Positions 6,100 through 63,427 of a stretch of 64,000 nucleotides of DNA are shown here, piece after piece. Position 1 is the first letter of the stretch. Every line of letters starts with the position of its first letter. This stretch comes from Eledone cirrhosa (lineage: Eukaryota). The translations under genes were made by a program, and so were the position numbers. The stretch spans positions 50,034,001-50,098,000 of the forward strand of contig OZ024740.1 of the NCBI GenBank assembly GCA_964016885.1. Direction: 5' to 3'. The notes beneath the pieces were generated by a model. It was given only the letters and a program-made list of their open reading frames with translations, did no database searches and was not told the DNA's origin.

Positions 6100-6109
6100 A
6101 TAGATAGAT

Positions 6110-6502: not shown

Positions 6503-6507
<5 letters not shown>
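6110..6507 (-). mobile_element. Short 5'-truncated Tx1-like copy B (3' end only)
   Basis: Encodes ...FLSGQQLILFFKYHF...VNGPSLYISL*, then 3'UTR and AATAAAGAAA(TCTA)n; bounded by (GATA)n on both sides. Confidence 0.85.
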
Positions 6508-6582
<75 letters not shown>

Positions 6583-6815
6583 TTCTTTATTTGCCACAAG
6601 GGCGCACAAGAAAAGGGAACAATACAAAGACATGCCGGGGATTTTACATACAGTCGTGTAAAAAATATAAAAACAAACAATTACAACAATCGAAATCCCC
6701 AATAGGAGGGAAACGCCACAAATGGGTTGTTTAATACCCCGTCGATAGAACAACCCTCAACTCCAGGAGCGTGTTGTGCAAGTGCTCCTTTCTTCCTTTT
6801 GCTCTCTTCTTCAAC

Positions 6816-9800: not shown

Positions 9801-10231
9801 ACCATTCCAGTCCCCCCACTAAAAGTAAGGAGTGAGACGTTCCCAGAAAAGACTCTAGACGCTTAAAGAAGTCTGGCCGTGATTGCGATTGCCCGGTCGG
9901 GGCATAAACGGCCACCAGTCTGAAGGCTCCACATCCAATACTGTTCACGTCTAGGACTACCAGTCTACCCTCCGGGTCCAAGTGTACTTGCTGTACTTCG
10001 GCGTCCAGGTTCTTCCGAAACATGATAGCCACTCCCCCCTGGCGGACAGAGAGATGCGTAGATCTCAAAGTCGTCGAAGATGAGGGTTAGTTGCTGCCTG
10101 TTGTGGATCCTGTACTCGGTGATGGCTATCACATCCATACCGTGTGACCTAAGGTCGTTTAAAAGTTGCCCCTGTTTCCAAGGCATCCCTAGGCCACGCA
10201 TATTCACGCTTCCAACTCGTAAACTCGCCAT
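6816..10231 (-). pseudogene. Tx1-like ORF2 (AP endonuclease, reverse transcriptase, C-terminal Cys/His domain), multiple frameshifts
   Basis: Motifs are spread over ORF fragments 9965-10231, 9784-10068, 9272-9748, 8162-8980, 8128-8364 and 7314-8081. Stop position is homologous to that of copy A. Confidence 0.88.
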
Positions 10232-10249
10232 GTTGGTGAAGAAGATTTG

Positions 10250-12166
10250 GAGAAAAAGGACGAAAGGTGCACTTACCTTTTCGTTTCCTGGAGATCGGGT
10301 TGTTCAATCTCCATTTGGGTGCTGGATGGGGTGTTGGGTGGGGTGAGAAACCTTTCAACAGGACGCGGTTGATGGGTTTGTGGCAGGGGTTGCCCACGTC
10401 CTGTGAAAATTTAGTTTTCAGGTCATTATAGGTTTCCATAGAAACCCTTATAAGTTTAAGGTGTGGAGACGATTCTGCCTTGACGAAAGTTTTGCCCTCC
10501 GTCTCCACCTTCGGGTTTTGGGAGATGACCTCCATCAAACTCTTGTTGTTTGTGTTGATGTATGCGTATTGTTGTTTGTGTTTTTGTTGTGTTGTTTTAG
10601 TTTGTTGTTTGTCCGGGAGTTTTTTTTTATGGTGGGTGCTTGTGTTTGGGGTGGTGTTGGTGTTGGTTTCGCTGGTAGGAGGATGTTTGACTGTGGTGTT
10701 GTTTGTGTTGTTGTTTGTGTCTGTGGTTGTGTGTTGGTGTTGGTGATTGGAGTTTTGGGGTTTTGTGGTGTCTCGTTTTTTGTTTTTTAGATTTCCGCGG
10801 CTCTCCCTCTTCTTCATTTAAAGAAGGAGAAGCAACTTCATCCGTCGATGAATAATCATCGTCAGGGGTGTGGGGTAGGGGTATATTGTGTGGTGGTGGT
10901 GTTTCGGTGTGTGTGTTTGTGGTAGTGTTTGATGGAGTGGGATGGGGTGGGGCTGTGTTCTTCAGGGGGTGTTGTCTCTGTTTTTTCTGTTGTTATTGGT
11001 TGAGTGTCTGTTTGTTTTGGTGTGGTTGCTCGTTTCGTCTGTCGTTGTACTTGTGGTGGTGGTGGTTGTTTTGGTGTTGGTGTTGGTAATAATGTATTTT
11101 TAATGATGTTGTTGTTGTTGTGGGTTTGTGGACAAGAGGCTTTTAGGTGTGCTATGCTACCACAGCGAAAGCAATGAAATGTTCGTCCTTCTACCGAAAT
11201 GTTTATTTTGTTGTTATTATCGATAACGACTCTTTCGGGTATTTTGGAGATTCTCTCCGGTTTCATTTGCAACAGAATCTCCAAATCTGTACCCGCCCAC
11301 CTTTGTCGAATATATTTTCGTATCGAAAGAATCATATCAGTTTCTGGCTCTACAAAGCTAGCTAAGATCCACCAGATGTTAATGTTTGGTGGTATATTTT
11401 TTTTTGTGTCCTTTTTCCCATGTATGTCGGGAAAAAATGAATACTTTTGACACTATTGGTGTCACAGAATGTTTTGGGGCGAGTGCCTCGCTTTTAAACA
11501 GTACGGAAACACTTCTGTACTGTTTTCCTCGTTGGAGAAATTCGATATTTGCTACAATTTCTTTCAGGGTATTTTCTATATGTCCTTGACTAACAAATAT
11601 CGGCTTTCTCGTTGTATTGGACACAGTCCTAAAGATCACTGTCTTTCGCACTGTGTCTTCTTTTATTTCACGGGGTGAGTTAATTCTAAACCCACCCTTG
11701 TCTTCGAAAGTTACAAACTTTCTCCCCTTGCTGGAGCATATCTCTTGCATTGGAGATGTCAAGATTTATAAAATCTTGTTTTTTGTTCACTGTTTCAGCG
11801 AAAGACATTTTTTTGTGTGGTGTTGCTGTTGCTGTTGTTGTTGTTATCGTTGTTAGCCTCGGTGTTGGAAATCTCAGTTCCTTGACGAGGTGAAACTTTA
11901 TGTGTAAATGTATCTGTGGAGTTGTTGATGTTGTTTTTTTCCTGTGTATGTATATTAATGGGTTTAATTCCTGTGTTTTCATTTTTTTTTTTCTGCTTCG
12001 ACGGTAGAAATTGTACAATCTTCAAGTGGCAATATTTTTTCCCTTTGTTGACAGTCGTATCTATGGCGACGTCCATAGCAGCAGAAGCAGATATAATGTT
12101 AAAATCTGCCTCTTTCTCTCTCTTTTCTCTGTCGACGTTCTCCAGCGTTCCCTTCGTGTTATTCAT
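10250..12166 (-). pseudogene. Tx1-like ORF1 (gag-like, zinc knuckle HCFRCGSIAHLKASC), disrupted
   Basis: Consecutive ORF fragments 11795-12166, 11379-11762, 10862-11335 and 10149-10817; C-X2-C-X4-H-X4-C motif; T/P/N-rich linker. Confidence 0.75.
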
Positions 12167-23799: not shown

Positions 23800-25680
23800 G
23801 AACCGTGACGGGTCAGAGACGGCAGCAGTCTACCAGTTCCTAACTTAACGGCCTGTCGCGACTCTCCACGTTTGATGCGAAGCACTGACAAAAAGCCGAT
23901 ATACGTGAAGCCCTGGCCGACTATACGAGGTGCAAATCACTAGTAGACATGCCAGACCTGTTTTCCAATGCCCTCGAAGCTATCTAATGCAATTGGCAGC
24001 AGAATGGGAGAATTTCCAGTTTTGTGAGTCGAGGCGTAGTAATAGATAATTTCCGGTCAATAACTCTGCTTAACACTGAGTTGAAGATTTTACCAAGGTG
24101 CTAGCAATGAGGTTGGCGGTTGTCAAGAGTCTGATAGGGGAAGCACAGACGTGCGCAATTCCGATCAGGTCCATATACGACAACCTTCACCTAAAGCGAT
24201 ACATCATAGAGAGGACGGGGGAGTAAACCTGGTATCAGTGGGGCTCTGATCAATCTAGATCAATCGAAAGCTTTCAATCGGGTCGACCATCGATACCTAG
24301 ATGTTGTCCTCAAAGCGACAGACTTTGGTCTCGTCTTCTGAGGCTAGATCGCTGCAATGCACAGCAGCATCTACTCGGTGGTTAATGTCAACGGCCACCG
24401 ATCGGAACCGTTCCAGACCACGCACTTCATCTACCAAGGTCACCCTCCCTTCTGTACGTTCTGACTCTCAAGTCACTACTGCAGAAGCTGGAGCTGATGC
24501 AGGGCATCTCGCGCGAATCGTGACGTGGAAGGGCTGTGTTGGCATATGCAAACGTCATCACATTGGTGGTGTCGAACACTTCGGAAATATAGGTGGTCGA
24601 CAACTTAGAGGAATATGAAAAATTGATGGGAGCAAAGATCAAGCCGGAAAAGTCGGTGGGTTTGCAGTTCGGCACCTGGAGAGGCAAATTCCTGCCAGTT
24701 GATCGTGGTCTAGTTTTGTTCAAACCTTTTGGGACAAGGTAACATGGTGAACAGATGTGGTCACTGTTTGTGACACAGCTTGTCTCTTTGACTGAGCTAC
24801 AGTCATGAATCAAGCGAAGACCGCGACTGGTTGCTTGGCATCTGGAATGTGGTCAAGCGCTCACAGCTCTCTACCAGTTGGGCAAACCGGTCATTGGAAA
24901 TCCCACTCTAGTATTATCTATTGGACTAATGGTGTGAAAATGTAACGAAATTCTCCGAGAAACTCGGGGTGTCGACGACATCGAACTACCCAGTCTGTTG
25001 CGGAGAACTTTCGAGCCGGGGACTATGGAAATTTTCCAGAAGTACCTGTCTTGACAGTGTTACTGGGGGGAAGGGGCACTGCCGATTCGGGACAAATTCT
25101 ACAGGCAAGAAGTTGCTATCAGACAAAACTGTCCGAGGTACGCAGATCGATGAAACCGTTCTGCATGCACTCATCCAGTGTCCAAGCATTGCTGACGTGT
25201 GGAGTTTTATCGAACAGCTATTATTGCGTGTTGGGCGGATCCGGCTATCCGGCTGTCTTTTGGGCGGAAATGGATGACTGTAGTGAAAGACCTTGAGTGG
25301 TGAACGCAGCTGAAAGGGATGAAAACAGACATTTCCCTATTCAGTTCAGCTCTCCTTTTCAAGTTCCACCTGAAAAGGAAGGTGAGGGTGAAGAGCGAAG
25401 TGCTGCCCCCAGGTGGGTGAATGTAGCGAGGATGGCCTAAGTGAATGGGTCTACTCTGACCATGTGTCGGTAGGCTGGAGAGTTTAGAAAAGAGAGGGGT
25501 ACCTTCCAATGATGCTCTTGATCTGTGAGGTTCCTAAATTACCTCTGTGTGTGGTACTCTCCGCTATTGTGGAATTTTATTGTTAGTAATTTATTGTTAA
25601 TTGTTATCTTTTTTAGACGTTTTATGTAAATCGTCCCTGTCCCTGTTTTTGTTGTCTATTATATTTCGGCCTTTGAGGCA
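23800..25680 (+). mobile_element. Old, internally deleted Tx1-like copy related to copies A-D
   Basis: Remnants of INLDQSKAFNRVDHRYL (~24248-24300), KSVGLQFGTWRGK (~24650-24690), ETVLHALIQCP (~25150) and a 3'UTR resembling copy C. Confidence 0.75.
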
Positions 25681-26984: not shown

Positions 26985-27301
26985 ATGGGATCCGATCAGC
27001 AAGAGAACAAAGACACAATTCCCGTGGATGCTGGCGGTAATCAGAACAGAAAAAACAACAATAGAAGCGGCTGTTTCTGCTGCTGTTGTAAGAGCACGCC
27101 TAAACCAGGACAGCAGATACCTCAAAAGAATTTTGGACAAAAATGTCGTAGCTGTGGACGAAAATTTGTTACTTTTCTTTTCTCTCATATTGGACTGACC
27201 TTTTTAGTGGCAGGTTATTCTATTTTGGGAGGTTATGTATTTATGAAAATTGAAAAACCTTATGAGATTACTCAGAGATCAAATGTCGGGAAAATTAGGC
27301 G
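26985..27301 (+). CDS. K2P (two-pore-domain, TWIK/KCNK-family) potassium channel, coding exon 1 (N-terminus and M1)
   Basis: ATG at 26985. Translation ends ...GRKFVTFLFSHIGLTFLVAGYSILGGYVFMKIEKPYE, a typical invertebrate K2P M1. GT donor at 27302 (CG|GTAATA, phase 2) matches exon 2. Confidence 0.9.
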
Positions 27302-27651
27302 GTAATAATTTGTTTTGTTCTGTTTTCTGTTTGCTAAAACTGTGGATCTCTCGCTGCCACCTACTTTCTTTCTCTTTTTCTTTCACTTTCCTTTTACTCT
27401 CTTTCCTTCTTTTTCCCTTTATCTCTCTGTCTCTCCCTGCCATTTTTCTATTGAAATGTAATTGTCCCAACGCAAATGACTATAATAGTCGATCGTTATA
27501 AATAATAGTTGAGAAAATCGTATAAAGTACCCTTGATGACGGAAATAAGTGGATACAGGCACCTACGAGGAATCGAAACCAGCATCTCTCGGATACCAGG
27601 CGTGTGCGTTATTTCAAATTTTGAATTTCCACAAAGGTTCTTAAGTCAACC

Positions 27652-28979: not shown

Positions 28980-31900
28980 ATAGCATCTATATTGTATAAA
29001 ACTTAGCATTTATATTGTATAAGACTAGCATTTATATTGTATAAGACTGTAGCATTTATATTGTATAAGACTGTAGTATTTATATTGTATAAGACTGTAG
29101 TATTTATATTGTATAAGACTGTAGCATCTATATTGTATAAGACTTAGCATTTATATTGTATAAGACTAGCATTTATATTGTATAAGACTGTAGCATTTAT
29201 ATTGTATAAGACTTAGCATTTATATTGTATAAGACTGTAGTATTTATATTGTATAAGACTGTAGTATTTATATTATATAAGACTTAGCATTTATATTGTA
29301 TAAGACTGTAGCATTTATATTGTATAAGACTGTAGCATTTATATTATATAAGACTGTAGTATTTATATTATATAAGACTTAGCATTTATATTGTATAAGA
29401 CTGTAGCATTTATATTGTATAAGACTTAGCATTGATATTGTATAAGACTGTAGTATTTATATTGTATAAGACTAGCATTTATATTGTATAAGACTGTAGT
29501 ATTTATATTGTATAAGACTAGCATTTATATTTATAAGACTGTAGCATTTATATTGTATAAGACTGTAGCATTTATATTATATAAGACTGTAGCATTTATA
29601 TTGTATAAGACAGTAGCATTTATATTTATAAGACTGTAGTATTTATATTGTATAAGACTGTAGTATTTATATTTATAAGACTGTAGCATTTATATTGTAT
29701 AAGACTGTAGTATTTATATTTATAAGACTGTAGTATTTATATTGTATAAGACTGTAGTATTTATATTATATAAGACTGTAGTATTTATATTATATAAGAC
29801 TGTAGTATTTATATTATATAAGACTAGCATATATATTATATAAGACTGTAGTATTTATATTGTATAAGACTAGCATTTATATTGTATAAGACTGTAGCAT
29901 TTATATTGTATAAGACTAGCATTTATATTGTATAAGACTGTAGCATTTATATTGTATAAGACTAGCATTTATATTGTATAAGACTGTAGTATTTATATTG
30001 TATAAGACTAGCATTTATATTATATAAGACTGTAGTATTTATATTATATAAGACTGTAGTATTTATATTATATAAGACTAGCATTTATATTATATAAGAC
30101 TGTAGTATTTATATTGTATAAGACTAGCATTTATATTGTATAAGACTGTAGTATTTATATTGTATAAGACTAGCATTTATATTGTATAAGACTGTAGCAT
30201 TTATATTGTATAAGACTAGCATTTATATTGTATAAGACTGTAGTATTTATATTGTATAAGACTAGCATTTATATTATATAAGACTGTAGTATTTATATTG
30301 TATAAGACTAGCATTTATATTGTATAAGACTGTAGCATTTATATTATATAAGACTGTAGTATTTATATTGTATAAGACTGTAGTATTTATATTGTATAAG
30401 ACTGTAGCATTTATATTATATAAGACTGTAGTATTTATATTGTATAAGACTGTAGTATTTATATTATATAAGACTGTAGTATTTATATTGTATAAGACTG
30501 TAGCATTTATATTATATAAGACTGTAGCATTTATATTGTATAAGACTTAGCATTGATATTGTATAAGACTGTAGTATTTATATTGTATAAGACTAGCATT
30601 TATATTTATAAGACTGTAGCATTTATATTGTATAAGACTGTAGCATTTATATTGTATAAGACTGTAGTATTTATATTGTATAAGACTAGCATTTATATTT
30701 ATAAGACTGTAGCATTTATATTGTATAAGACAGTAGCATTTATATTTATAAGACTGTAGTATTTATATTGTATAAGACTGTAGTATTTATATTTATAAGA
30801 CTGTAGCATTTATATTGTATAAGACTGTAGTATTTATATTTATAAGACTGTAGTATTTATATTGTATAAGACTGTAGTATTTATATTATATAAGACTGTA
30901 GTATTTATATTATATAAGACTGTAGTATTTATATTGTATAAGACTGTAGTATTTATATTATATAAGACTGTAGTATTTATATTATATAAGACTAGCATTT
31001 ATATTATATAAGACTGTAGTATTTATATTGTATAAGACTAGCATTTATATTATATAAGACTGTAGTATTTATATTGTATAAGACTAGCATTTATATTGTA
31101 TAAGACTGTAGTATTTAGATTGTATAAGACTGTAGCATTTATATTATATAAGACTGTAGTATTTATATTATATAAGACTGTAGCATTTATATTGTATAAG
31201 ACTAGCATTTATATTGTATAAGACTGTAGCATTTATATTGTATAAGACTGTAGCATTTATATTATATAAGACTGTAGTATTTATATTATATAAGACTTAG
31301 CATTTATATTGTATAAGACTGTAGTATTTATATTGTATAAGACTTAGCATTTATATTATATAAGACTGTAGTATTTATATTGTATAAGACTTAGCATTTA
31401 TATTGTATAAGACTAGCATTTATATTGTATAAGACTGTAGCATTTATATTGTATAAGACTAGCATTTATATTGTATAAGACTGTAGTATTTATATTGTAT
31501 AAGACTGTAGTATTTATATTATATAAGACTGTAGTATTTATATTGTATAAGACTGTAGTATTTATATTGTATAAGACTGTAGCATTTATATTGTATAAGA
31601 CTGTAGCATTTATATTGTATAAGACTGTAGCATTTATATTGTATAAGACTGTAGCATTTATATTGTATAAGACTGTAGCATTTATATTATATAAGACTAG
31701 CATTTATATTGTATAATACTAGCATTTATATTGTATAAGACTATAGCATTTATATTGTATAAGACTAGCATTTATATTATATAAGACAGTAGTATTTATA
31801 TTGTATAAGACTGTAGCATTTATATTGTATAAGACTGTAGCATTTATATTGTATAAGACTGTAGCATTTATATTGTATAAGACTGTAGCATTTATATTAT

Positions 31901-34900
31901 ATAAGACTGTAGCATTTATATTGTATAAGACTGTAGCATTTATATTGTATAAGACTGTAGCATTTATATTGTATAAGACTGTAGCATTTATATTATATAA
32001 GACTGTAGCATTTATATTGTATAAGACTGTAGCATTTATATTGTATAAGACTGTAGCATTTATATTATATAAGACTGTAGTATTTATATTGTTTAAGACT
32101 TTAGCATTGATATTGTATAAGACTGTAGCATTTATATTGTATAAGATATAGCATTTATATTGTATAAGACTGTAGCATTTATATTGTATAAGACTGTAGC
32201 ATTTATATTGTATAAGACTGTAGCATTTATATTGTATAAGACTGTAGCATTTATATTGTATAAGACTGAAGCATTTATATTATATAAGACTGTAGTATTT
32301 ATATTGTATAAGACTGTAGCGTTTATATTGTATAAGACTGTAGCATTTATATTGTATAAGACTGTAGCATTTATATTGTATAAGACTGTAGCATTTATAT
32401 TGTATAAGACTGAAGCATTTATATTATATAAGACTGTAGTATTTATATTGTATAAGACTGTAGCATTTATATTGTATAAGACTGTAGTATTTATATTGTA
32501 TAAGACTTAGCATTTATATTGTATAAGACTAGCATTTATATTGTATAAGACTGTAGTATTTATATTATATAAGACTGTAGTATTTATATTATATAAGACT
32601 GTAGTATTTATATTGTATAAGACTGTAGCATTTATATTATATTAGACTGTAGCATTTATATTGTATAAGACTGTAGCATTTATATTATATAAGACTAGCA
32701 TTTATATTGTATAAGACTAGCATTTATATTGTATAAGACTGTAGCATTTATATTGTATAAGACTGTAGAATTTATATTGTATAAGACTGTAGCATTTATA
32801 TTATATAAGACTGTAATATTTATATTGTATAAGACTGTAGCATTTATATTGTATAAGACTGTAGTATTTATATTGTATAAGACTTACCGTTTATATTATA
32901 TAAGACTGTAGTATTTATATTGTATAAGACTGTAGTATTTATATTATATAAGACTGTAGTATTTATATTGTATAAGACTGTAGTATTTATATTGTATAAG
33001 ACTGTAGTATTTATATTATATAAGACTAGCATATATATTGTATAAGACTGTAGCATTTATATTATATAAGACTAGCATTTATATTGTATAAGACTGTAGC
33101 ATTTATATTGTATAAGACTGTAGCATTTATATTATATAAGACTGTAGTATTTATATTATATAAGACTTAGCATTTATATTGTATAAGACTGTAGTATTTA
33201 TATTGTATAAGACTTAGCATTTATATTATATAAGACTGTAGTATTTATATTGTATAAGACTTAGCATTTATATTGTATAAGACTAGCATTTATATTGTAT
33301 AAGACTGTAGCATTTATATTGTATAAGACTAGCATTTATATTGTATAAGACTGTAGTATTTATATTGTATAAGACTGTAGTATTTATATTATATAAGACT
33401 GTAGTATTTATATTGTATAAGACTGTAGTATTTATATTGTATAAGACTGTAGCATTTATATTGTATAAGACTGTAGCATTTATATTGTATAAGACTGTAG
33501 CATTTATATTGTATAAGACTGTAGCATTTATATTGTATAAGACTGTAGCATTTATATTATATAAGACTAGCATTTATATTGTATAATACTAGCATTTATA
33601 TTGTATAAGACTATAGCATTTATATTGTATAAGACTAGCATTTATATTATATAAGACTGTAGTATTTATATTGTATAAGACTGTAGCATTTATATTGTAT
33701 AAGACTGTAGCATTTATATTGTATAAGACTGTAGCATTTATATTGTATAAGACTGTAGCATTTATATTATATAAGACTGTAGCATTTATATTGTATAAGA
33801 CTGTAGCATTTATATTGTATAAGACTGTAGCATTTATATTGTATAAGACTGTAGCATTTATATTATATAAGACTGTAGCATTTATATTGTATAAGACTGT
33901 AGCATTTATATTGTATAAGACTGTAGCATTTATATTATATAAGACTGTAGTATTTATATTGTTTAAGACTTTAGCATTGATATTGTATAAGACTGTAGCA
34001 TTTATATTGTATAAGACTTTGCATTTATATTGTATAAGACTGTAGCATTTATTTTGTATAAGACTGTAGCATTTATATTGTATAAGACTGTAGCATTTAT
34101 ATTGTATAAGACTGTAGCATTTATATTGTATAAGACTGAAGCATTTATATTATATAAGACTGTAGTATTTATATTGTATAAGACTGTAGCGTTTATATTG
34201 TATAAGACTGTAGCATTTATATTGTATAAGACTGTAGCATTTATATTGTATAAGACTGTAGCATTTATATTGTATAAGACTGAAGCATTTATATTATATA
34301 AGACTGTAGTATTTATATTGTATAAGACTGTAGCATTTATATTGTATAAGACTGTAGTATTTATATTGTATAAGACTTAGCATTTATATTGTATAAGACT
34401 AGCATTTATATTGTATAAGACTGTAGTATTTATATTATATAAGACTGTAGTATTTATATTATATAAGACTGTAGTATTTATATTGTATAAGACTGTAGCA
34501 TTTATATTATATTAGACTGTAGCATTTATATTGTATAAGACTGTAGCATTTATATTATATAAGACTAGCATTTATATTGTATAAGACTAGCATTTATATT
34601 GTATAAGACTGTAGCATTTATATTGTATAAGACTGTAGAATTTATATTGTATAAGACTGTAGCATTTATATTATATAAGACTGTAATATTTATATTGTAT
34701 AAGACTGTAGCATTTATATTGTATAAGACTGTAGTATTTATATTGTATAAGACTTACCGTTTATATTATATAAGACTGTAGTATTTATATTGTATAAGAC
34801 TGTAGTATTTATATTATATAAGACTGTAGTATTTATATTGTATAAGACTGTAGTATATATATTGTATAAGACTGTAGTATTTATATTATATAAGACTAGC

Positions 34901-37900
34901 ATATATATTGTATAAGACTGTAGCATTTATATTATATAAGACTAGCATTTATATTGTATAAGACTGTAGCATTTATATTGTATAAGACTGTAGCATTTAT
35001 ATTGTATAAGACTGTAGCATTTATATTGTATAAGACTGTAGTATTTATATTATATAAGACTGTAGCATTTATATTGTATAAGACTGTAGTATTTATATTG
35101 TATAAGACTAGCATTTATATTGTATAAGACTGTAGTATTTACATTGTATAAGACTGTAGTATTTATATTATATAAGACTGTAGTATTTATATTGTATAAG
35201 ACTAGCATTTATATTGTATAAGACTAGTATTTATATTGTATCAGACTGTAGTATTTATATTATATAAGACTGTAGTATTTATATTGTATAAGACTGTAGC
35301 ATTTATATTGTATAAGACTGTAGTATTTATATTGTATAAGACTGTAGTATTTATATTGTATAAGACTAGCATTTATATTGTATAAGACTGTAGTATTTAT
35401 ATTGTATAAGACTTAGCATTTATATTGTATAAGACTAGCATTTATATTGTATAAGACTGTAGCATTTATATTGTATAAGACTAGCATTTATATTGTATAA
35501 GACTGTAGTATTTATATTGTATAAGACTGTAGTATTTATATTATATAAGACTGTAGTATTTATATTGTATAAGACTAGCATTTATATTGTATAAGACTGT
35601 AGCATTTATATTGTATAAGACTGTAGCATTTATATTATATAATACTAGCATTTATATTGTATAAGACTAGCATTTATATTGTATAAGACTATAGCATTTA
35701 TATTGTATAAGACTAGCATTTATATTATATAAGACTGTAGTATTTATATTGTATAAGACTGTAGCATTTATATTGTATAAGACTGTAGCATTTATATTGT
35801 ATAAGACTGTAGCATTTATATTGTATAAGACTGTAGCATTTACATTATATAAGACTGTAGCATTTATATTGTATAAGACTGTAGCATTTATATTGTATAA
35901 GACTGTAGCATTTATATTGTATAAGACTGTAGCATTTATATTATATAAGACTGTAGTATTTATATTGTATAAGACTGTAGCATTTATATTGTATAAGACT
36001 GTAGTATTTGTATTGTATAAGACTAGCATTTATATTGCATAAGACTGTAGCATTTATATTGTATAAGACTGTAGTATTTATATTATATAAGACTGTAGTA
36101 TTTATATTGTATAAGACTGTAGCATTTATATTGTATAAGACTGTAGTATTTATATTGTATAAGACTAGCATTTATATTGTATAAGACTGTAGCATTTATA
36201 TTGTATAAGACTAGCATTTATATTGTATAAGACTGTAGCATTTATATTGTATAAGACTGTAGTATTTATATTATATAAGACTGTAGCATTTATATTGTAT
36301 AAGACGGTAGTATTTATATTATATAAGACTGTAGTATTTATATTATATAAGACTAGCATTTATATTATATAAGACTGTAGCATTTATATTATATAAGACT
36401 GTAGCATTTATATTGTATAAGACTGTAGCATTTATATTGTATAAGACTAGCATTTATATTGTATAAGACTGTAGCATTTATATTATATAAGACTGTAGCA
36501 TTTATATTGTATAAGACTGTAGTATTTATATTATATAAGACTGTAGTATTTATATTATATAAGACTAGCATTTATATTATATAAGACTGTAGCATTTATA
36601 TTATATAAGACTGTAGCATTTATATTGTATAAGACTGTAGCATTTATATTGTATAAGACTGTAGCATTTATATTGTATAAGACTAGCATTTATATTGTAT
36701 AAGACTGTAGTATTTATATTGTATAAGACTTAGCATTTATATTGTATAAGACTGTAGCATTTATATTGTATAAGACTAGCATTTATATTGTATAAGACTG
36801 TAGCATTTATATTATATAAGACTGTAGTATTTATATTGTATAAGACTGTAGTATTTATATTGTATAAGACTCTAGTATTTATATTGTATAAGACTGTAGT
36901 ATTTATATTGTATAAGACTGTAGTATTTATATTGTATAAGACTAGCATTTATATTGTATAAGACTGTAGCATTTATATTGTATAAGACTAGCATTTATAT
37001 TGTATAAGACTGTAGTATTTATATTGTATAAGACTGTAGCATTTATATTATATAAGACTGTAGCATTTATATTGTATAAGACTGTAGCATTTATATTATA
37101 TAAGACTGTAGTATTTATATTATATAAGACTGTAGTATTTATATTGTATAAGACTCTAGTATTTATATTGTATAAGACTTAGCATTTATATTATATAAGA
37201 CTGTAGTATTTATATTGTATAAGACTGTAGTATTTATATTGTATAAGACTGTAGCATTTATATTGTATAAGACTGTAGCATTTATATTGTATAAGACTTA
37301 GAATTTATATTGTATAAGACTGTAGCATTTATATTGTATAAGACTGTAGCATGTATATTGTATAAGACTGTAGCATTTATATTGTATAAGACTGTAGCAT
37401 TTATATTGTATAAGACTAGCATTTATATTGTATAAGACTGTAGTATTTATATTGTATAAGACTGTAGCATTTATATTATATAAGACTGTAGCATTTATAT
37501 TGTATAAGACTGTAGTATTTATATTGTTTAAGACTGTAGTATTTATATTGTATAAGACTGTAGCATTTATATTGTATAAGACTGTAGCATTTATATTGTA
37601 TAAGACTTAGAATTTATATTGTATAAGACTGTAGCATTTATATTGTATAAGACTGTAGCATGTATATTGTATAAGACTGTAGCATTTATATTGTATAAGA
37701 CTGTAGCATTTATATTGTATAAGACTGTAGCACTTATATTGTATAAGACTGTAGTATTTATATTGTATAAGACTAGCATTTATATTATATAAGACTGTAG
37801 CATTTATATTGTATAAGACTGTAGCATTTATATTGTATAAGACTGTAGTATTTATATTGTATAAGACTGTAGCATTTATATTGTATAAGACTGTAGTATT

Positions 37901-40900
37901 TATATTGTATAAGACTGTAGTATTTATATTGTATAAGACTGTAGCATTTATATTGTATAAGACTGTAGCATTTATATTGTATAAGACTGTAGCATTTATA
38001 TTATATAAGACTGTAGCATTTATATTGTATAAGACTTAGCATTTATATTGTATAAGACTGTAGTATTTATATTGTATAAGACTGTAGTATTTATATTATA
38101 TAAGACTGTAGTATTTATATTGTATAAGACTGTAGTATTTATATTGTATAAGACTGTAGTATTTATATTGTATAAGACTAGCATTTATATTGTATAAGAC
38201 TGTAGCATTTATATTGTATAAGACTGTAGTATTTATATTGTATAAGACTGTAGCATTTATATTGTATAAGACTGTAGCATTTATATTGTATAAGACTGTA
38301 GTATTTATATTGTATAAGACTGTAGCATTTATATTGTATAAGACTGTAGCATTTATATTGTATAAGACTGTAGTATTTATATTGTATAAGACTGTAGCAT
38401 TTAAATTGTATAAGACTGTAGTATTTATATTGTATAAGACTGTAGTATTTATATCGTATAAGACTGTAGTATTTATATTGTATAAGACTGTAGTATTTAT
38501 ATTATATAAGACTGTAGCATTTATATTGTATAAGACTGTAGTATTTATATTGTATAAGACTGTAGCATTTATATTGTATAAGACTGTAGCATTTATATTG
38601 TATAAGACTGTAGTATTTATATTGTATAAGACTGTAGCATTTATATTGTATAAGACTGTAGCATTTATATTGTATAAGACTGTAGTATTTATATTGTATA
38701 AGACTGTAGCATTTATATTGTATAAGACTGTAGCATTTATATTGTATAAGACTGTAGTATTTATATTGTATAAGACTGTAGTATTTATATTGTATAAGAC
38801 TGTAGCATTTATATTGTATAAGACTGTAGCATTTATATTGTATAAGACTGTAGCATTTATATTGTATAAGACTGTAGCATTTATATTGTATAAGACTGTA
38901 GTATTTATATTGTATAAGACTGTAGCATTTATATTGTATAAGACTGTAGCATTTATATTGTATAAGACTGTAGTATTTATATTGTATAAGACTGTAGCAT
39001 TTATATTGTATAAGACTGTAGTATTTATATCGTATAAGACTGTAGTATTTATATTATATAAGACTGTAGTATTTATATTGTATAAGACTGTAGCATTTAT
39101 ATTATATAAGACTGTAGTATTTATATTGTATAAGACTGTAGTATTTATATTGTATAAGACTGTAGTATTTATATTGTATAAGACTGTAGCATTTATATTG
39201 TATAAGACTGTAGCATATATATTGTATAAGACGGTAGTATTTATATTGTATAAGACTGTAGCATCTATATTGTATAAGACTGTTGTATTTATATTGTATA
39301 AGACTGTAGTATTTATATTATATAAGACTGTAGTATTTATATTGTATAAGACTGTTGTATTTATATTGTATAAGACTAGCATTTATATTGTATAAGACTG
39401 TAGCATTTATATTGTATAAGACTAGCGTTTATATTATATAACACTAGCATTTATATTGTATAAGACTAGCATTTATATTGTATAAGACTTAGCATTTATA
39501 TTGTATAAGACTAGCATTTATATTGTATAAGACTGTAGCATTTATATTGTATAAGACTAGCGTTTATATTGTATAAGACTGTAGCATTTATATTGTATAA
39601 GACTAGCATTTATATTATATAAGACTGTAGCATTTATATTGTATAAGACTGTAGCATTTATATTATATAAGACTGTAGTATTTATATTGTATAAGACTGT
39701 AGTATTTATATTGTATAAGACTGTAGTATTTATATTGTATAAGACTGTAGCATTTATATGGTATAAGACTGTAGCATTTATATTGTATAAGACTGTAGCA
39801 TCTATATTGTATAAGACTAGCATTTATACTGTAATATTTATATAATATAAATGCTACAGTCTTATACAATATAAATGCTACAGTCTTATACAATATAAAT
39901 GCTAAGTCTTATACAATATAAATACTACAGTCTTATATAATATAAATGCTACAGTCTTATACAATATAAATGCTACAGTCTTATACAATATAAATACTAC
40001 AGTCTTATACAATATAAATACTACAGTCTTATACAATATAAATACTACAGTCTTATATAATATAAATGATAAGTCTTATATAATATAAATGCTAAGTCTT
40101 ATACAATATAAATACTATTTATATTGTATAAGACTGTAGCATTTATATTGTATAAGACTAGCGTTTATATTGTATAAGACTGTAGCATTTATATTGTATA
40201 ACACTGTAGTATTTATATTGTATAAGACTGTAGTATTTATATTATATAAGACTGTAGCATTTATATTGTATAAGACTGTAGCATTTATATTGTATAAGAC
40301 TGTAGCATTTATATTTTATAAGACTGTAGCATTTATATTGTATAAGACTGTAGTATTTATATTGTATAAGACTTATCATTTATATTATATAAGACTGTAG
40401 TATTTATATTGTATAAGACTGTAGTATTTATATTGTATAAGACTGTAGTATTTATATTGTATAAGACTGTAGCATTTATATTGTATAAGACTGTAGCATT
40501 TATATTATATAAGACTGTAGTATTTATATTGTATAAGACTTAGCATTTATATTGTATAAGACTGTAGCATTTATATTGTATAAGACTGTAGCATTTATAT
40601 TATATAAGACTGTAGTATTTATATTGTATAAGACTTAGCATTTATATTGTATAAGACTGTAGCATTTATATTGTATAAGACTGTAGCATTTATATTATAT
40701 AAGACTGTAGTATTTATATTGTATAAGACTTAGCATTTATATTGTATAAGACTGTAGCATTTATATTATATAAGACTGTAGTATTTATATTGTATAAGAC
40801 TGTAGCATTTATATTGTATAAGACTGTAGCATTTATATTGTATAAGACTTAGCATTTATATTATATAAGACTGTAGCATTTATATTGTATAAGACTAGCA

Positions 40901-43900
40901 TCTATATTGTATAAGACTGTAGTATTTATATTGTATAAGACTGTAGCATTTATATTGTATAAGACTGTAGCATTTATATTGTATAAGACTTAGAATTTAT
41001 ATTGTATAAGACTGTAGCATTTATATTGTATAAGACTGTAGCATGTATATTGTATAAGACTTAGAATTTATATTGTATAAGACTGTAGCATTTATATTGT
41101 ATAAGACTAGCATTTATATTGTATAAGACTGTAGTATTTATATTGTATAAGACTGTAGTATTTATATTGTATAAGACTGTAGTATTTATATTGTATAAGA
41201 CTGTAGCATTTATATTGTATAAGACTGTAGCATTTATATTGTATAAGACTGTAGCATTTATATTGTATAAGACTGTAGCATTTATATTGTATAAGACTGT
41301 AGTATTTATATTGTATAAGACTGTAGCATTTATATTGTATAAGACTGTAGCATTTATATTGTATAAGACTGTAGTATTTATATTGTATAAGACTCTAGTA
41401 TTTATATTGTATAAGACTTAGCATTTATATTATATAAGACTGTAGTATTTATATTGTATAAGACTGTAGTATTTATATTGTATAAGACTGTAGCATTTAT
41501 ATTGTATAAGACTGTAGCATTTATATTGTATAAGACTGTAGCATTTATATTATATAAGACTGTAGTATTTATATTGTATAAGACTTAGCATTTATATTGT
41601 ATAAGACTGTAGCATTTATATTACATAAGACTTAGCATTTATATTGTATAAGACTGTAGCATTTATATTGTATAAGACTGTAGCATTTATATTATATAAG
41701 ACTGTAGTATTTATATTGTATAAGACTTAGCATTTATATTGTATAAGACTGTAGCATTTATATTATATAAGACTGTAGTATTTATATTGTATAAGACTGT
41801 AGCATTTATATTGTATAAGACTGTAGCATTTATATTGTATAAGACTTAGCATTTATATTGTATAAGACTGTAGCATTTATATTGTATAAGACTGTAGCAT
41901 GTATATTGTATAAGACTAGCATTTATATTGTATAAGACTGTAGTATTTATATTATATAAGACTGTAGCATTTATATTGTATAAGACTGTAGTATTTATAT
42001 TATATAAGACTGTAGTATTTATATTGTATAAGACTGTAGCATTTATATTATATAAGACTGTAGTATTTATATTGTATAAGACTGTAGTATTTATATTATA
42101 TAAGACTGTAGCATTTATATTGTATAAGACTGTAGTATATATATTGTATAAGACTGTAGCATTTATATTGTATAAGACTGTAGCATTTATATTATATAAG
42201 ACTGTAGTATTTATATTGTATAAGACTGTAGCATTTATATTGTATAAGACTGTAGCATTTATATTGTATAAGACTTAGCATTTATATTATATAAGACTGT
42301 AGTATTTATATTGTATAAGACTGTAGTATTTATATTATATAAGACTGTAGCATTTATATTGTATAAGACTGTAGTATTTATATTGTATAAGACTTAGCAT
42401 CTATATTGTATAAGACTTAGCATTTATATTGTATAAGACTTAGCATTTATATTGTATAAGACTGTAGCATTTATATTGTATAAGACTGTAGCATTTATAT
42501 TGTATAAGACTGTAGCATTTATATTGTATAAGACTGTAGCATTTATATTGTATAAGACTGTAGCATTTATATTGTATAAGACTGTAGCATTTATATTGTA
42601 TAAGACTGTAGTATTTATATTGTATAAGACTTATCATTTATATTATATAAGACTGTAGTATTTATATTATATAAGACTGTAGTATTTATATTATATAAGA
42701 CTGTAGCATTTATATTGTATAAGACTGTAGTATTTATATTGTATAAGACTTAGCATTTATATTGTATAAGACTTAGCATTTATATTGTATAAGACTTTAG
42801 CATTTATATTGTATAAGACTGTATCATTTATATTGTATAAGACTGTAGCATTTATATTGTATAAGACTGTAGCATTTATATTGTATAAGACTGTAGCATT
42901 TATATTGTATAAGACTGTAGCATTTATATTGTATAAGACTGTAGCATTTATATTGTATAAGACTGTTGTATTTATATTGTATAAGACTGTAGTATTTATA
43001 TTATATAAGACTGTAGCATGTATATTGTATAAGACTGTAGTATTTATATTGTATAAGACTGTAGCATTTATATTGTATAAGACTAGCGTTTATATTGTAT
43101 AAGACTGTAGCATTTATATTGTATAACACTGTAGTATTTATATTGTATAAGACTGTAGTATTTATATTATATAAGACTGTAGCATTTATATTGTATAAGA
43201 CTGTAGCATTTATATTGTATAAGACTGTAGCATTTATATTTTATCAGACTGTAGCATTTATATTGTATAAGACTGTAGTATTTATATTGTATAAGACTTA
43301 TCATTTATATTATATAAGACTGTAGTATTTATATTGTATAAGACTGTAGTATTTATATTGTATAAGACTGTAGTATTTATATTGTATAAGACTGTAGCAT
43401 TTATATTGTATAAGACTAGCATTTATATTGTATAAGACTGTAGCATTTATATTATATAAGACTGTAGTATTTATGTTGTATAAGACTGTAGCATTTATAT
43501 TATATAAGACTGTAGCATTTATATTGTATTAGACTGTAGCATTTATATTGTATAAGACTGTAGCATTCATATTGTATAAGACTGTAGCATTTATATTATA
43601 TAAGACTGTAGTATTTATATTGTATAAGACTGTAGTATTTATATTGTATAAGACTGTAGTATTTATATTGTATAAGACTGTAGCATTTATATTGTATAAG
43701 ACTGTAGCATTTATATTGTATAAGACTGTAGCATCTATATTGTATAAGACTAGCATTTATATTGTATAAGACTGTAGTATTTATATTGTATAAGACTGTA
43801 GTATTTATATTGTATAAGACTGTAGCATTTATATTGTATAAGACTTAGCATTTATATTGTATAAGACTGTAGTATTTATGTTGTATAAGACTGTAGTATT

Positions 43901-46900
43901 TATATTGTATAAGACTAGCATTTATATTGTATAAGACTGTAGTATTTATATTGTATAAGACTGTAGTATTTATATTATATAAGACTGTAGTATTTATATT
44001 GTATAAGACTTAGCATTTATATTGTATAAGACTAGCATTTATATTGTATAAGACTGTAGTATTTATATTGTATAAGACTGTAGCATTTATATTGTATAAG
44101 ACTTAGCATTTATATTGTATAAGACTAGCATTTATATTGTATAAGACTATAGCATTTATATTGTATAAGACTGTAGCATCTATATTGTATAAGACTAGCA
44201 TTTATATTGTATAAGACTGTAGTATTTATATTGTATAAGACTAGCATCTATATTGTATAAGACTGTAGCATTTATATTGTATAAGACTTAGCATTTATAT
44301 TGTATAAGACTATAGCATTTATATTGTATAAGACTGTAGCATCTATATTGTATAAGACTAGCATTTATATTGTATAAGACTGTAGTATTTATATTGTATA
44401 AGACTAGCATCTATATTGTATAAGACTGTAGCATTTATATTGTATAAGACTGTAGTATTTATGTTATATAAGACTGTAGTATTTATATTGTATAAGACTG
44501 TAGAATTTATATTATATAAGACTGTAGTATTTATATTGTATAAGACTGTAGCATTTATATTATATAAGACTGTAGTATTTATATTATATAAGATTGTAGC
44601 ATTTATATTGTATAAGACTAGCATTTATATTATATAAGACTGTAGAAATTATATTGTATAAGTTTAGCATTTATATTATATAAGACTGTAGCATATATAT
44701 TGTATAAGACTGTAGTATTTATATTATATAAGACTAGCATTTATATTGTATAAGACTGTAGTATTTATATTGTATTAGACTGTAGTATTTATATTGTATA
44801 AGACTGTAGTATTTATATTGTATTAGACTGTAGTATTTATATTGTATAAGACTGTAGTATTTATATTATATAAGACTAGCATTTATATTGTATAAGACTA
44901 GCATCTATATTGTATAAGACTTAGCATTTATATTGTATAAGACTGTAGTATTTATATTGTATAAGACTGTAGTATTTATATTGTATTAGACTGTAATATT
45001 TATATTGTATAAGACTGTAGTATTTATATTATATAAGACTGTAGTATTTATATTGTATAAGACTGTAGCATTTATATTGTATAAGACTGTAGCATCTATA
45101 TTGTATAAGACTGTAGCATTTATATTGTATTAGACTGTAATATTTATATTGTATAAGACTGTAGTATTTATATTATATAAGACTGTAGTATTTATATTGT
45201 ATAAGACTGTAGCATTTATATTGTATAAGACTGTAGCATCTATATTGTATAAGACTAGCATTTATATTGTATAAGACTAGCATCTATATTGTATAAGACT
45301 GTAGTATTTATATTGTATAAGACTAGCATTTATATTGTATAAGACTAGCATTTATATTGTATAAGACTAGCATCTATATTGTATAAGACTGTAGTATTTA
45401 TATTGTCTAAGACTAGCATTTATATTATATAAGACTGTAGTATTTATATTGTATAAGACTGTAGTATTTATATTGTATAAGACTGTAGCATCTATATTGT
45501 ATAAGACTAGCATTTATATTATATAAGACTGTAGTATTTATATTGTATAAGACTAGCATTTATATTATATAAGACTGTAGTATTTATATTGTATAAGACT
45601 GTAGTATTTATATTGTATAAGACTGTAGTATTTATATTGTATAAGACTGTAGCATTTATATTGTATAAGACTGTAGTATTTGTATTGTATAAGACTGTAG
45701 TATTTATATTGTATAAGACTGTAGCATCTATATTGTATAAGACTGTAGTATTTATATTATATAAGACTTTAGCATCTATATTGTATAAGACTGTAGCATT
45801 TATATTGTATAAGACTGTAGTATTTATATTGTATAAGACTGTAGTATTTATATTATTTTATTGTAGTATTTATATATTTATACTGTAGTATTTATATTGT
45901 ATAAGACTGTAGCATTTATATTGTATAAGACTGTAGCATCTATATTGTATAAGACTAGCATTTATATTGTATAAGACTAGCATCTATATTGTATAAGACT
46001 GTAGTATTTATATTATATAAGACTGTAGCATCTATATTGTATAAGACTGTAGCATCTATATTGTATAAGACTGTAGTATTTATATTGTATAAGACTGTAG
46101 TATTTATATTGTATAAGACTGTAGTATTTATATTATTTTATTGTAGTATTTATATATTTATACTGTAGTATTTATATTATTTTATTATAGTATTTATATA
46201 TTTTATTGTATAAGACTGTAGTATTTATATTGTATAAGACTGTAGCATTTATATTATATAAGACTGTAGTATTTATATTGTATAAGACTAGCATTTATAT
46301 TATATAAGACTGTAGCATTTATATTGTATAAGACTGTAGTATTTATATTATATAAGACTGTAGTATTTATATTGTTTAAGACTGTAGTATTTATATTGTA
46401 TAAGACTTAGCATTTATATTGTATAAGACTGTAGTATTTATATTATATAAGACTGTAGCATTTATATTGTATAAGACTGTAGTATTTATATTGTATAAGA
46501 CTGTAGTATTTATATTATATAAGACTGTAGTATTTATATTGTATAAGACTGTAGTATTTATATTGTATAAGACTGTAGTATTTATATTATATAAGACTGT
46601 AGTATTTATATTGTATAAGACTGTAGTATTTATATTGTATAAGACTGTAGTATTTATATTATATAAGACTGTAGTATTTATATTATATAAGACTGTAGTA
46701 TTTATATTGTATAAGACTGTAGTATTTATATTGTATAAGACTGTAGTATTTATATTATATAAGACTGTAGTATTTATATTATATAAGACTGTAGTATTTA
46801 TATTGTATAAGACTGTAGTATTTATATTGTATAAGACTTAGCATTTATATTGTATAAGACTGTAGTATTTATATTATATAAGACTAGCATTTATATTATA

Positions 46901-47976
46901 TAAGACTGTAGTATTTATATTGTATAAGACTTAGCATTTATATTGTATAAGACTGTAGTATTTATATTATATAAGACTAGCATTTATATTGTATAAGACT
47001 GTAGTATTTATATTGTATAAGACTAGCGTTTATATTATATAAGACTGTAGTATTTATATTGTATAAGACTTAGCATTTATATTATATAAGACTGTAGCAT
47101 TTATATTGTATAAGACTGTAGTATTTATATTGTATAAGACTGTAGTATTTATATTGTATAAGACTAGCATTTATATTGTATAAGACTGTAGCATTTATAT
47201 TGTATAAGACTGTAGTATTTATATTATATAACACTAGCATTTATATTGTATAAGACTGTAGTATTTATATTATATAACACTAGCATTTATATTGTATAAG
47301 ACTGTAGTATTTATATTATATAACACTAGCATTTATATTGTATAAGACTGTAGTATTTATATTATATAAGACTGTAGCATTTATATTGTATAAGACTTAG
47401 CATTTATATTGTATAAGACTGTAGTATTTATATTATATAAGACTGTAGTATTTATATTATATAAGACTGTAGTATTTATATTATATAAGACTGTAGTATT
47501 TATATTGTATAAGACTGTAGTATTTATATTGTATAAGACTGTAGCATTTATATTGTATAAGACTGTAGTATTTATAGTATATAAGACTGTAGTATTTATA
47601 TTATATAAGACTGTAGTATTTATATTGTATAAGACTGTAGCATTTATATTGTATAAGACTGTAGTATTTATATTATATAAGACTGTAGTATTTATATTAT
47701 ATAAGACTGTAGTATTTATATTGTATAAGACTGTAGCATTTATATTGTATAAGACTAGCATTTATATTGTATAAGACTATTGTATAAGACTGTAGCATTT
47801 ATATTGTATAAGACTGTAGCATTTATATTATATAAGACTGTAGTATTTATATTGTATAAGACTGTAGCATTTATATTATATAAGACTGTAGCATTTATAT
47901 TATATAAGACTGTAGTATTTATATTGTATAAGACTGTAGCATTTATATTGTATAAGACTGTAGCATTTATATTGTA
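28980..47976 (+). repeat. Giant intronic minisatellite, 24-bp consensus ACTGTAGYATTTATATTRTATAAG with 22- and 23-bp variants (roughly 800 units, estimated from length)
   Basis: Tandem periodicity is directly visible. Variants ACTAG (22 bp) and ACTTAG (23 bp); C/T and G/A dimorphic positions. Confidence 0.98.
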
Positions 47977-48493
47977 CTAGCATTAAAGCCCGGCGTTGCT
48001 CGGGGTCGCTCAGTAGCTGTGTTAAAGTTACAATGTTAAATTTCTTTTTTGGCTTAAAAACTGTAGTGTCTACTGTGCAGACTTGCATGTGGTGTTTTTG
48101 ATTAATATTCCCTCAACCAACAATATGCCTTATGAAGTTAAGAAAACATAACGATAACCCGAATGTTATAACAAAAGAGGATGCTGGGGATAAAAACTGC
48201 ACTGGTTATTTATTAACAAAGACTGAGAAAGCCAGCGTAATTTTTTACGTAAGACGCTCAATGTAAACAGAACAAAGGGAAATAACTGATAACTTACGCT
48301 CAAAAATCGATACATTATATTCGATTTCGTCACATAGGGTGGGTCAATTTGAAATATTTTTTTTTCCGATGTCTTCGCTAGGGCTCAATGTACAAGTCTC
48401 GCAATTTCGGTGCAATTCCGTGAGAGATTCTAAGAGGAGATGTGTGCCAAAAATCGATAGACAGACAGACAACCACAGTTTTATATATATAGA
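47977..48493 (-). mobile_element. Non-autonomous Helitron, 517 bp
   Basis: Minus strand begins TCTATATATATAAA, has (CTGT)n near the 5' end, and ends with hairpin CCCGAGCAACGCCGGG 8 nt before CTAG. Inserted between A and T with no TSD; removing it restores ATTGTA|TAAGACT, an exact repeat unit. Confidence 0.9.
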
Positions 48494-49391
48494 TAAGACT
48501 TAGCATTTATATTGTATAAGACTTAGCATTTATATTGTATAAGACTGTAGCATTTATATTGTATAAGACTTAGCATTTATATTGTATAAGACTGTAGCAT
48601 TTATATTATATAAGACTGTAGTATTTATATTGTATAAGACTGTAGCATTTATATTGTATAAGACTGTAGCATTTATATTGTATAAGACTTAGCATTTATA
48701 TTGTATAAGACTTAGCATTTATTTTGTATAAGACTGTAGCATTTATATGGTATAAGACTGTAGTATTTATATTGTATAAGACTGTAGCATTTATATTATA
48801 TAAGACTGTAGTATTCATATTATATAAGACTGTAGCATTTATATTGTATAAGACTAGCATTTATATTATATAAGACTGTAGCATTTATATTATATAAGAC
48901 TAGCATTTATATTGTATAAGACTAGCATTCATATTATATAAGACTAGCATTTATATGGTATAAGACTTAGCATTTATATTATATAAGACTAGATTTATAT
49001 TATATAAGACTGTAGCATTTATATTATATAAGACTAGATTTATATTATATAAGACTGTAGCATTTATATTATATAAGACTAGATTAATATTATATAAGAC
49101 TGTAGCATTTATATTATATAAGACTAGATTTATATTATATAAGACTGTAGCATTTATATTGTATAAGACTGTAGTATTTATATTGTATAAGACTGTAGTA
49201 TTTATATTGTATAAGATTAGCATTTATATTATATAAGATTGTAGTATTTATATTGTATAAGACTTAGCATTTATATTATATAAGACTGTAGTATTTATAT
49301 TATATAAGACTGTAGCATTTATATTGTATAAGACTAGCATTTATATTATATAAGACTAGATTTGTATTATATAAGACTGTAGCATTTATAT
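48494..49391 (+). repeat. Continuation of the minisatellite after the Helitron insertion
   Basis: Same unit resumes in register; includes a 21-bp ACTAGATT variant. Confidence 0.97.
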
Positions 49392-50212: not shown

Positions 50213-50285
50213 TGTCTATAAAACAAAGAAAGTAAATTGAAACTAAAATATTTGAAATCCTTAATACATTTTTTTATCGCTGCAG

Positions 50286-50512
50286 ATTAGCAGTAAGCCG
50301 ATTATGGAATTATACAGAGAACCTCAATATCCTCAAAGAAGAACACTGGAAACAAAAAGTCGACGAAAAATTAAAATATTTCCAGCTGGAAATCTTCAAA
50401 GCTGTCAAAAATGATGGATGGGATGGAAGCGACGAGGTTTCTACGGATTATGAAGGCCAGTGGTCATTTTCAGGAGCGTTGCTTTTCTCTGTAACGGTCA
50501 TCACAACAATAG
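50286..50512 (+). CDS. K2P channel coding exon 2 (cap domain and pore helix 1)
   Basis: Acceptor tttttatcgctgcAG ends at 50285. Reads (R)LAVSRLWNYTENLNILKEEHWKQKVDEKLKYFQLEIFKAVKNDGWDGSDEVSTDYEGQWSFSGALLFSVTVITTI(G). Donor G|GTAGGT at 50513, phase 1. Confidence 0.93.
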
Positions 50513-51042
50513 GTAGGTTAAAACATAAACTTGTGCAATACACATATTTACTTAGTTTCTGTTATCTTCCACTACGCTACCAAACAGAGGAAACAAAAAC
50601 GTCTTCTAAATACTTGGTTCAGTTAAGTATTGCAAATATGAACTTTATATTTCTTTATTTGACTTTCTTTGTCTTTATCACGAACATGAACAGAACAAGA
50701 TGCGATATTCTAGAACTTATAACATATATCCCAGGCTTCATATTCATTTGAAGGTAGCACGGTAATCTAAACACCAGTCAACTGTGTAATGTTGCTGTTG
50801 CTTATAACTGTCACCTGCAATTCGTCACAATAACGATATACAGAGGCAACGTGTGTCTCGAAGCAAATATCGTGTGTCACTGATAACCTGTTACAAATTT
50901 TCTACCTTAAGTAAATAAATTGGTGCCACTCTGTTTTATATGAACAATAATTCAATATAGAGGAATTTCAATTTATTAAAAATATCAGATTTTTTCAAAA
51001 AGAACTTTCTAGGTGCAAAAGCATGGACACACACACACACAC

Positions 51043-58263: not shown

Positions 58264-58350
58264 TGTGTGTGTGAGAGTTGTTGATTTGCTTGATTCTTTG
58301 TTTTTAGATAACATTTTGTTTACTATTGTTGTTTCTCTCCTTCTCTTTAG

Positions 58351-59030
58351 GTTATGGAAATATTGCACCAAAAACAGTTTATGGTCGTCTAGCTACGATT
58401 GCATATGCGGTGTTCGGCATCCCACTAACGCTATTATGCCTCGCCAATCTGGGTAATCTACTTGCAAGTTGCTTTCGTGTCTTCTACTACCAAGTACTCT
58501 GCTGTCAATGGTGTAAGAAGAGTAAAACAAAAAATAGAACACCAGCAATTCGTTCTGAAGTGACTCCAACTTACGTACAATCAGGAAATCGAAACATGGA
58601 AAAAAGTGAATCTGTCAACAGTAACTTTATAGACGGCAGTAATGTAGCTCCTAGAGATACAGTAGTCTATTCCATTGATGATCATTCTGAAAACGTTACC
58701 AGAAATATACCAGTGATTGTGACCCTTTTAATAATGACTGGATATATATTCTGTGGCACTTTATTGTTTACAATGTGGGAGAAAGACTGGGATTATGTAG
58801 AAGGTACTTACTTTTGTTTCATAACTCTCAGTACCATAGGATTTGGTGATTTCGTGCCAGGCGCAAGTCTAGATAAGTGGCACAACCAAACTAAGCAGAT
58901 AATCTGTTCCCTTTACTTACTTTTTGGACTGGCTCTAGTTGCCATGTGTTTTGAACTGATGCAGAATCAAGTTCGTGAAACTTTCACAAAACTTGGAAAA
59001 AGGTTGGGTATTATAAAATCAAGATTGTAA
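58351..59030 (+). CDS. K2P channel coding exon 3 (GYG filter, M2, loop, M3, P2 with GFG, M4, stop)
   Basis: Polypyrimidine acceptor ctccttctctttAG. The splice completes TIG|YGNIAPKT; second pore is YFCFITLSTIGFGDFVPG; stop TAA ends at 59030. Spliced CDS is 1224 nt = 407 aa plus stop. Confidence 0.95.

Positions 59031-62344: not shown

Positions 62345-63427
<1,083 letters not shown>

Follow-up and report, generated by a model that had tools for sequence, protein, structure and literature searches.

Tandem repeats linked to Helitrons are known either as arrays lying inside an element or as arrays in which complete or truncated elements are repeated (PMC12628747, PMC12001565, PMC11934779), and reviews cite Xiong et al. 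2016, Dias et al. 2015 and Haber and Louis 1998. Here we describe a locus of Eledone cirrhosa, in a 64,000-nucleotide stretch of contig OZ024740.1 (the window, meaning the whole stretch that was analysed), in which a 20.4-kb minisatellite array in an intron of a two-pore potassium channel (K2P) gene contains a 517-bp Helitron. As in DINE-TR1, the oyster Cg170/HindIII repeats and the 166-bp repeats of Xenopus Heli2Xen, a tandem repeat and a Helitron occur at one locus (PMC12628747, PMC12001565), but in those systems the repeats lie inside the element or at its ends, whereas here the element lies inside the array. The head-to-tail Helitron arrays of plants and bats have CTAG|TC joints in the same phase as the 22-nucleotide variant of our array; however, they repeat hundreds to thousands of element bases, while here a 22-nucleotide joint would be repeated alone, without a hairpin. 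Minisatellites seeded by Alu, B1 and MaLR elements have a short unit and grew by slippage and unequal exchange, as this one probably did, but they are flanked by their parent element (PMC6947457), and the octopod array has no such flanking parent. Neither a minisatellite made of a joint alone nor this octopod repeat was found in the search listings, abstract openings and article passages covered. An earlier note had proposed that the array derives from, or is a substrate for, RepHel activity on a minimal end-to-end Helitron unit. In our view, the array is probably an ordinary AT-rich intronic minisatellite that later received a Helitron as a passenger, and the likeness of its 22-mer to joined Helitron ends is more likely coincidental than inherited. 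Explained in this way, the locus is an ordinary case, in which a Helitron was inserted into a long minisatellite that already lay in the intron.

The order of events is indicated by the element itself, whose presence in the array, orientation and ends were correctly described in the earlier note. It has TC at its 5' end and CTAG, a CTRR end, at its 3' end, and in these ends, in the palindrome 12 nucleotides from the 3' end and in its insertion at A|T without target duplication it resembles Helraiser/Helibat1 and wheat Xuan1 (Helitron1 type; PMC4778049, PMC13286980). It has no coding capacity, and passes as a non-autonomous Helitron. The insertion lies between the A and the T (nucleotides 5 and 6) of a 24-mer, at the A|T following TCTT, which is one of the four AT sites of each unit, and excision of the element in silico restores an intact 24-mer. 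As the only copy in the window, and one that interrupts a 24-mer at A|T, it would be later than the array. It is also young, as it shows about four differences (three substitutions and one extra base) from the contigs of its multicopy family, described below. The 3' end of the element occurs once in the window and both of its ends adjoin satellite, so that its head-to-tail junction is merely virtual here; the claim that this junction closely matches that of the satellite thus holds for the likeness, which exceeds that of shuffles and of 22-mers from the flanks, but not for a junction present in the window. The unit of the array does not match the interior of the element (best internal 40-mer score, 21). 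The 3' palindrome folds weakly, at -5.7 kcal/mol (z score -0.59), which is no better than shuffles, 51 of 200 of which fold equally well; an Rfam search of positions 47900-48600 gave no match at E up to 1, and the Helitron 3' pattern had none in viral contigs.

We envisage that the array was built first, and that the 517-bp element, mobilised by RepHel encoded elsewhere, was inserted later. Helitrons usually insert at A|T sites that have an AT-rich 3' flank (PMC4778049), and 20 kb of DNA with 78% A+T may simply have offered a large preferred target. The array itself would have grown by slippage and unequal exchange, which would fit the interleaving of its variants, its block copies and its inversion. 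The minor 22-nucleotide unit would be alike by coincidence with a short generic motif.

The array, whose extent agrees with the roughly 20 kb given previously, has a period of 24 and 862 copies. Cut into units on the minus strand, it yields 831 pieces, 814 of which are 21-24 nucleotides long; the 17 merged or irregular pieces were excluded from the unit counts. The 24-mer dominates (628 units), followed by the 22-mer (110), the 23-mer (68) and the 21-mer (8). As had been noted, on the minus strand the 22-mer starts with TC and ends in CTAG and the dominant 24-mer ends in CTACAG; the 23-mer ends in CTAAG. The three differ in this tail only and form a chain of single-base steps. Position 8 is C or T in every length class, and position 18 is G in 109 of the 110 22-mers and G or A in the 24-mers. 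The description of the monomer as fused Helitron termini applies to the 115 of 814 units that start with TC and end in CTAG, but not to the other 699, and the exact variant that best matches the Helitron joint accounts for 19 of 808 pieces. Extra changes per unit amount to 0.20 in 22-mers, 0.20 in 23-mers and 0.15 in 24-mers; neither this divergence nor other features of the window polarise the classes. Block copies occur at offsets of 1,870, 2,078 and 2,925 bp, and the duplicated blocks show no pattern of starting at 22-mers, although there are only four of them. The 1,870-bp duplication could be an assembly artefact; a simple collapse of the assembly is made less likely by the large number of variants and their interleaving. 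The inverted block has both of its junctions in the AT-rich, near-palindromic portion of the unit, an arrangement expected from template switching.

Neither edge of the array shows a Helitron hairpin or 5' motif in motif searches, or a Helitron body in blastn searches. Read on the minus strand, the array starts in mid-unit after unique sequence, and not at TC. It is therefore not bounded by A|TC and CTAG|T, although its 3' side is a near miss, and it is neither enclosed by Helitron terminal segments nor abutting them. Its units are also not whole or truncated elements joined at CTAG|TC, since they contain no element body.

To what extent the unit resembles joined Helitron ends was assessed by aligning its variants with a virtual joint of 20+20 nucleotides taken from the ends of the resident element, a comparison that was chosen after the likeness had been noticed. 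The 22-mer and the virtual joint have the exact 11-mer AATGCTAGTCT in common, in phase, and the 22-mer with T at position 8 (the T-variant) aligns over 22 of 24 columns with two gaps. The joint scores are 31 for the C-variant, 36 for the T-variant and 25 for the dominant 24-mer, and of 20,000 mononucleotide shuffles 3, 0 and 79, respectively, reach them. A common string of 11 nucleotides is a weak test alone, being reached by 166 and 630 of 20,000 dinucleotide shuffles. The score of 25 is reached by 19 of 3,609 composition-matched 24-mers. When the 12 AT-rich 5' bases alone were shuffled, the top score was still obtained in 716 of 10,000 cases, so that the AT-rich 5' half carries little information. 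The unit thus matches a Helitron joint beyond chance, but largely through features of generic Helitron ends.

This genericity is seen in unrelated Helitrons. A scan of metagenome contigs for the palindrome followed by CTAG and T returned 55 loci with 56 ends, 41 of them distinct, of an estimated ~710; the pattern prescribed the palindrome, CTAG and T but left the letters before CTAG free. GCTAG closes 47 of the 56 foreign ends and TGCTAG 24. Foreign joints could be assembled for eight loci in which a motif provided a candidate 5' end to pair with the 3' end, with one locus (L007) representing the only clear whole copy. These joints score 21-32 on the C-variant (resident joint, 31) and 15-26 on the 24-mer (resident joint, 25). 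Because foreign joints score near the resident one, the match is mostly to generic Helitron ends, and the resident element adds about two A's beyond it.

The family of the resident element was traced in 4 of 17 sequencing runs, namely three contig sets (X1, X6 and X7) and one raw Hi-C run (X12). Parts of the element stretch are present in 11 of the 17 listed runs, and half or more of it in 8, under several organism labels; run X5, with a share of 0.05, was left out and does not count as evidence. The three contig sets contain 47, 3 and 48 matching contigs, covering 24-28 of 29 bins, with varied flanks and with loose ends that differ at both termini, as in a dispersed multicopy family. Among the 14 loose ends examined, of 27, none carries this satellite, and none of 99 records runs over the ends of the stretch or joins the ends of the element to the satellite. 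The Hi-C run gave a single read of 12.8 million, less than 90% alike, and is therefore uninformative on joints. Several side observations concern this family. The element is ~99% alike in the three contig sets, which bear three different organism labels; this suggests either that it was recently active in closely related species or that it was transferred horizontally. All three sets have the same loose end at position 48223, and a sibling subfamily has the 5' 270 bp in common and then diverges. Read depth at the element termini is far above the internal depth, so many families share these ends. Finally, the runs X11 and X12 bear one organism label; the former has 0.58 of the words, and the 1.9 billion letters of the latter hold the one poor read.

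Several observations weigh against a coincidence and have to be set beside the evidence above. As the earlier note had asked, the end similarity was set against shuffles, and it survived: 61 (C-variant), 44 (T-variant) and 413 (24-mer) of 20,000 dinucleotide shuffles reach the respective scores. Shuffling the arms around an unchanged CTAG|TC gives 36 in 7-37 and 31 in 66-333 of 10,000 trials; with columns permuted and the eight variant types kept, 36 is reached in none and 31 in 26 of 20,000; and none of 21,703 overlapping 22-mers from the flanks, made tandem, reaches 31. The likeness is real, with a chance frequency that lies roughly between one in several hundred and one in a few thousand. 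The string ATGCTAG, present in both the satellite and the resident element, is found in none of the 56 foreign ends, and on the T-variant the resident joint (36) scores above all eight foreign ones (26-32). The right-hand edge of the array is enriched in the units concerned, with CTAG-ending units making up 10 of 35 there and 108 of 779 elsewhere (nominal p 0.025) and units with T at position 8 making up 18 of 35 and 170 of 779 (nominal p 0.0003), the units not being independent in either test. At its minus-strand 3' end the array stops at GCTA, after which a TA run follows, so that a single base is missing from CTAG|T. Real joints also exist. TC directly follows CTAG in 5 of the 56 foreign ends, in three of which (L005, L007 and L030) it has the appearance of a Helitron start, so that head-to-tail joints are a common by-product. 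One record of a contig set (X1 record 7), a sibling of the resident element with a differing middle, has a CTAG|TC joint in that record only, the nine letters beyond its 5' TC reading as a 3' end that finishes in TGCTAG. It should also be noted that the contig sets bear coded organism labels and may not be from the species of the window. As a separate observation, a non-autonomous Helitron forms a true tandem pair at positions 250-1103 of L007; the two copies meet at a CTAG|TC joint, and a GC-rich 22-bp minisatellite lies internally, which is the classic arrangement.

These points would be accommodated if the minisatellite had been seeded by a joint, an explanation that we consider possible but rather unlikely. 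An old tandem pair of Helitrons would have provided a CTAG|TC joint, a short duplication between the A runs flanking it would have produced a 20-22-nucleotide unit, and recombination would have expanded it; the 23- and 24-mers would be later, the parent bodies would have been lost, and the resident 517-bp copy would be a later cousin and not the parent. If an old joint were duplicated across its middle, the product would be close to the T-variant 22-mer, and the in-phase 11-mer, the 22 of 24 aligned columns and their rarity under the null models, the real joints just described and the best-matching variants at the right edge are what this origin would lead one to expect. Four candidate foreign 5' ends (L017, L024, L047 and L055) start with TCTTATA, like the satellite. 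Slippage between short repeats has been described as a way in which minisatellites are seeded (PMC6947457), although in the model presented there the flanking repeat measures 5-10 bp, against the 2-3 nucleotides in common here. Such a seed further predicts a hairpin upstream or a Helitron body downstream, and the edges have neither. The 24-mers dominate the array, the G at position 18 of the 22-mers fits either direction of change, and none of the 80 tandem-repeat rows in the 55 Helitron loci has a unit containing the joint (CTAGTC). The prior is also low, as joints would be a tiny share of a genome, and a likelihood ratio of some hundreds has, we infer, to be weighed against this share and the missing flanks. 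What can be kept of the Helitron derivation proposed earlier is that a joint could have acted as a seed, given the likeness and the real CTAG|TC joints, but not the part that ties a RepHel concatemer to the resident element. If the seeding were true, it would add a route from transposon to tandem repeat, in which a repeat arises from a rolling-circle joint alone, and transposase-dependent instability of such arrays would be predicted. It is similarly doubtful that the whole 20-kb array was born from a joint alone, with a 22-nucleotide unit that was a RepHel cleavage site and later eroded to 23- and 24-mers; if this were so, more than 100 potential nick sites would remain in the intron array.

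A rolling-circle concatemer made by RepHel from a minimal end-to-end unit is very improbable. The TC...CTAG phase of the 22-mer agrees with it, Helraiser makes precise head-to-tail joints and circles without need of the hairpin (PMC4778049) and cuts a 51-nucleotide single-stranded joint in vitro (PMC5876387), and tandem Helitron arrays are known (PMC12628747, citing Xiong et al.). However, what is repeated in known arrays is either the element, whole or truncated, or an internal unit of at least 121 bp (PMC12001565), cells appear to need double-stranded circles (PMC5876387), and of the 5' end the unit has some 14-16 nucleotides, against the 30 terminal bases by which families are defined (PMC13286980). 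The array does not start at TC, CTAG is missing from 86% of its units, and its variants are interleaved, with block copies, and do not form long uniform runs of 22-mers. A double-stranded circle is implausible at 22 bp. With a young resident copy at the A|T of a 24-mer, a generic motif and edges without Helitron parts, this part of the earlier proposal is not supported. It is just as hard to credit that an independent array drew RepHel, or its nicking, through its likeness to Helitron ends and perhaps became less stable: the orientation is the same and the site is an A|T of the unit, but no special cause is required for one element to have landed in 20 kb of AT-rich DNA, the insertion did not use the CTAG|TC joints, and the satellite is absent among the loose ends examined. 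An ordinary minisatellite with a later Helitron passenger therefore remains the explanation that we favor.

The window is animal DNA with many microsatellites. Three coding exons of the K2P gene were matched (Table 1); the first matched intron is 23 kb long, and the array takes up about 20.4 kb of it. The product of the last of them is 89% identical to a K2P channel of Octopus sinensis and 64% identical to an Argonauta protein.

Table 1. Positions of the array, its Helitron and the host gene in the window
Feature	Coordinates	Strand	Basis or remark
Host K2P coding exon (matched part)	27081..27302	+	upstream of array
Minisatellite array, 21/22/23/24-nucleotide variants of one unit	28981..49391	- (as described)	78% A+T
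Tandem block duplication, 1,870-bp offset, two runs of 39 matching units	31202..34987	.	unit comparison
Inverted stretch of array, ~280 bp	39838..40116 (ends approximate)	+	orientation of units
Non-autonomous Helitron, 517 bp, 5' TC, CTGT repeats near 5' end, 3' palindrome, CTAG	47977..48493	-	ends and insertion site
GC-rich subterminal palindrome of Helitron, 12 nucleotides from 3' end	47989..48004	-	motif common to 56 metagenome-contig ends
Right-hand edge segment, rich in CTAG-ending and T-at-position-8 units	48494..49391	-	unit counts
Host K2P next coding exon	50284..50514	+	downstream of intron with array
Host K2P last matched coding exon	58350..59021	+	protein match

Scans of non-octopus collections, in which absence was expected, gave no match of the satellite dimer pattern in metagenome contigs or prokaryote genomes and none of the monomer pattern in viral contigs. 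Other repeats surround the array. Broken open reading frames lie at 4824-11452 and 23944-25481; by eye they resemble the reverse transcriptase and endonuclease of a long interspersed nuclear element. Partial copies are present at 4.8-7.9 kb, and a relative in inverted orientation lies near 24-25 kb. A short dispersed repeat, resembling a short interspersed nuclear element by eye, has copies 66-86% alike at 16087, 17846, 18191, 27680, 50094, 54635, 54872 and 55545. A degenerate 1.1-kb TA repeat at 62346-63427 is split by a 107-bp copy of the sequence at 61840.

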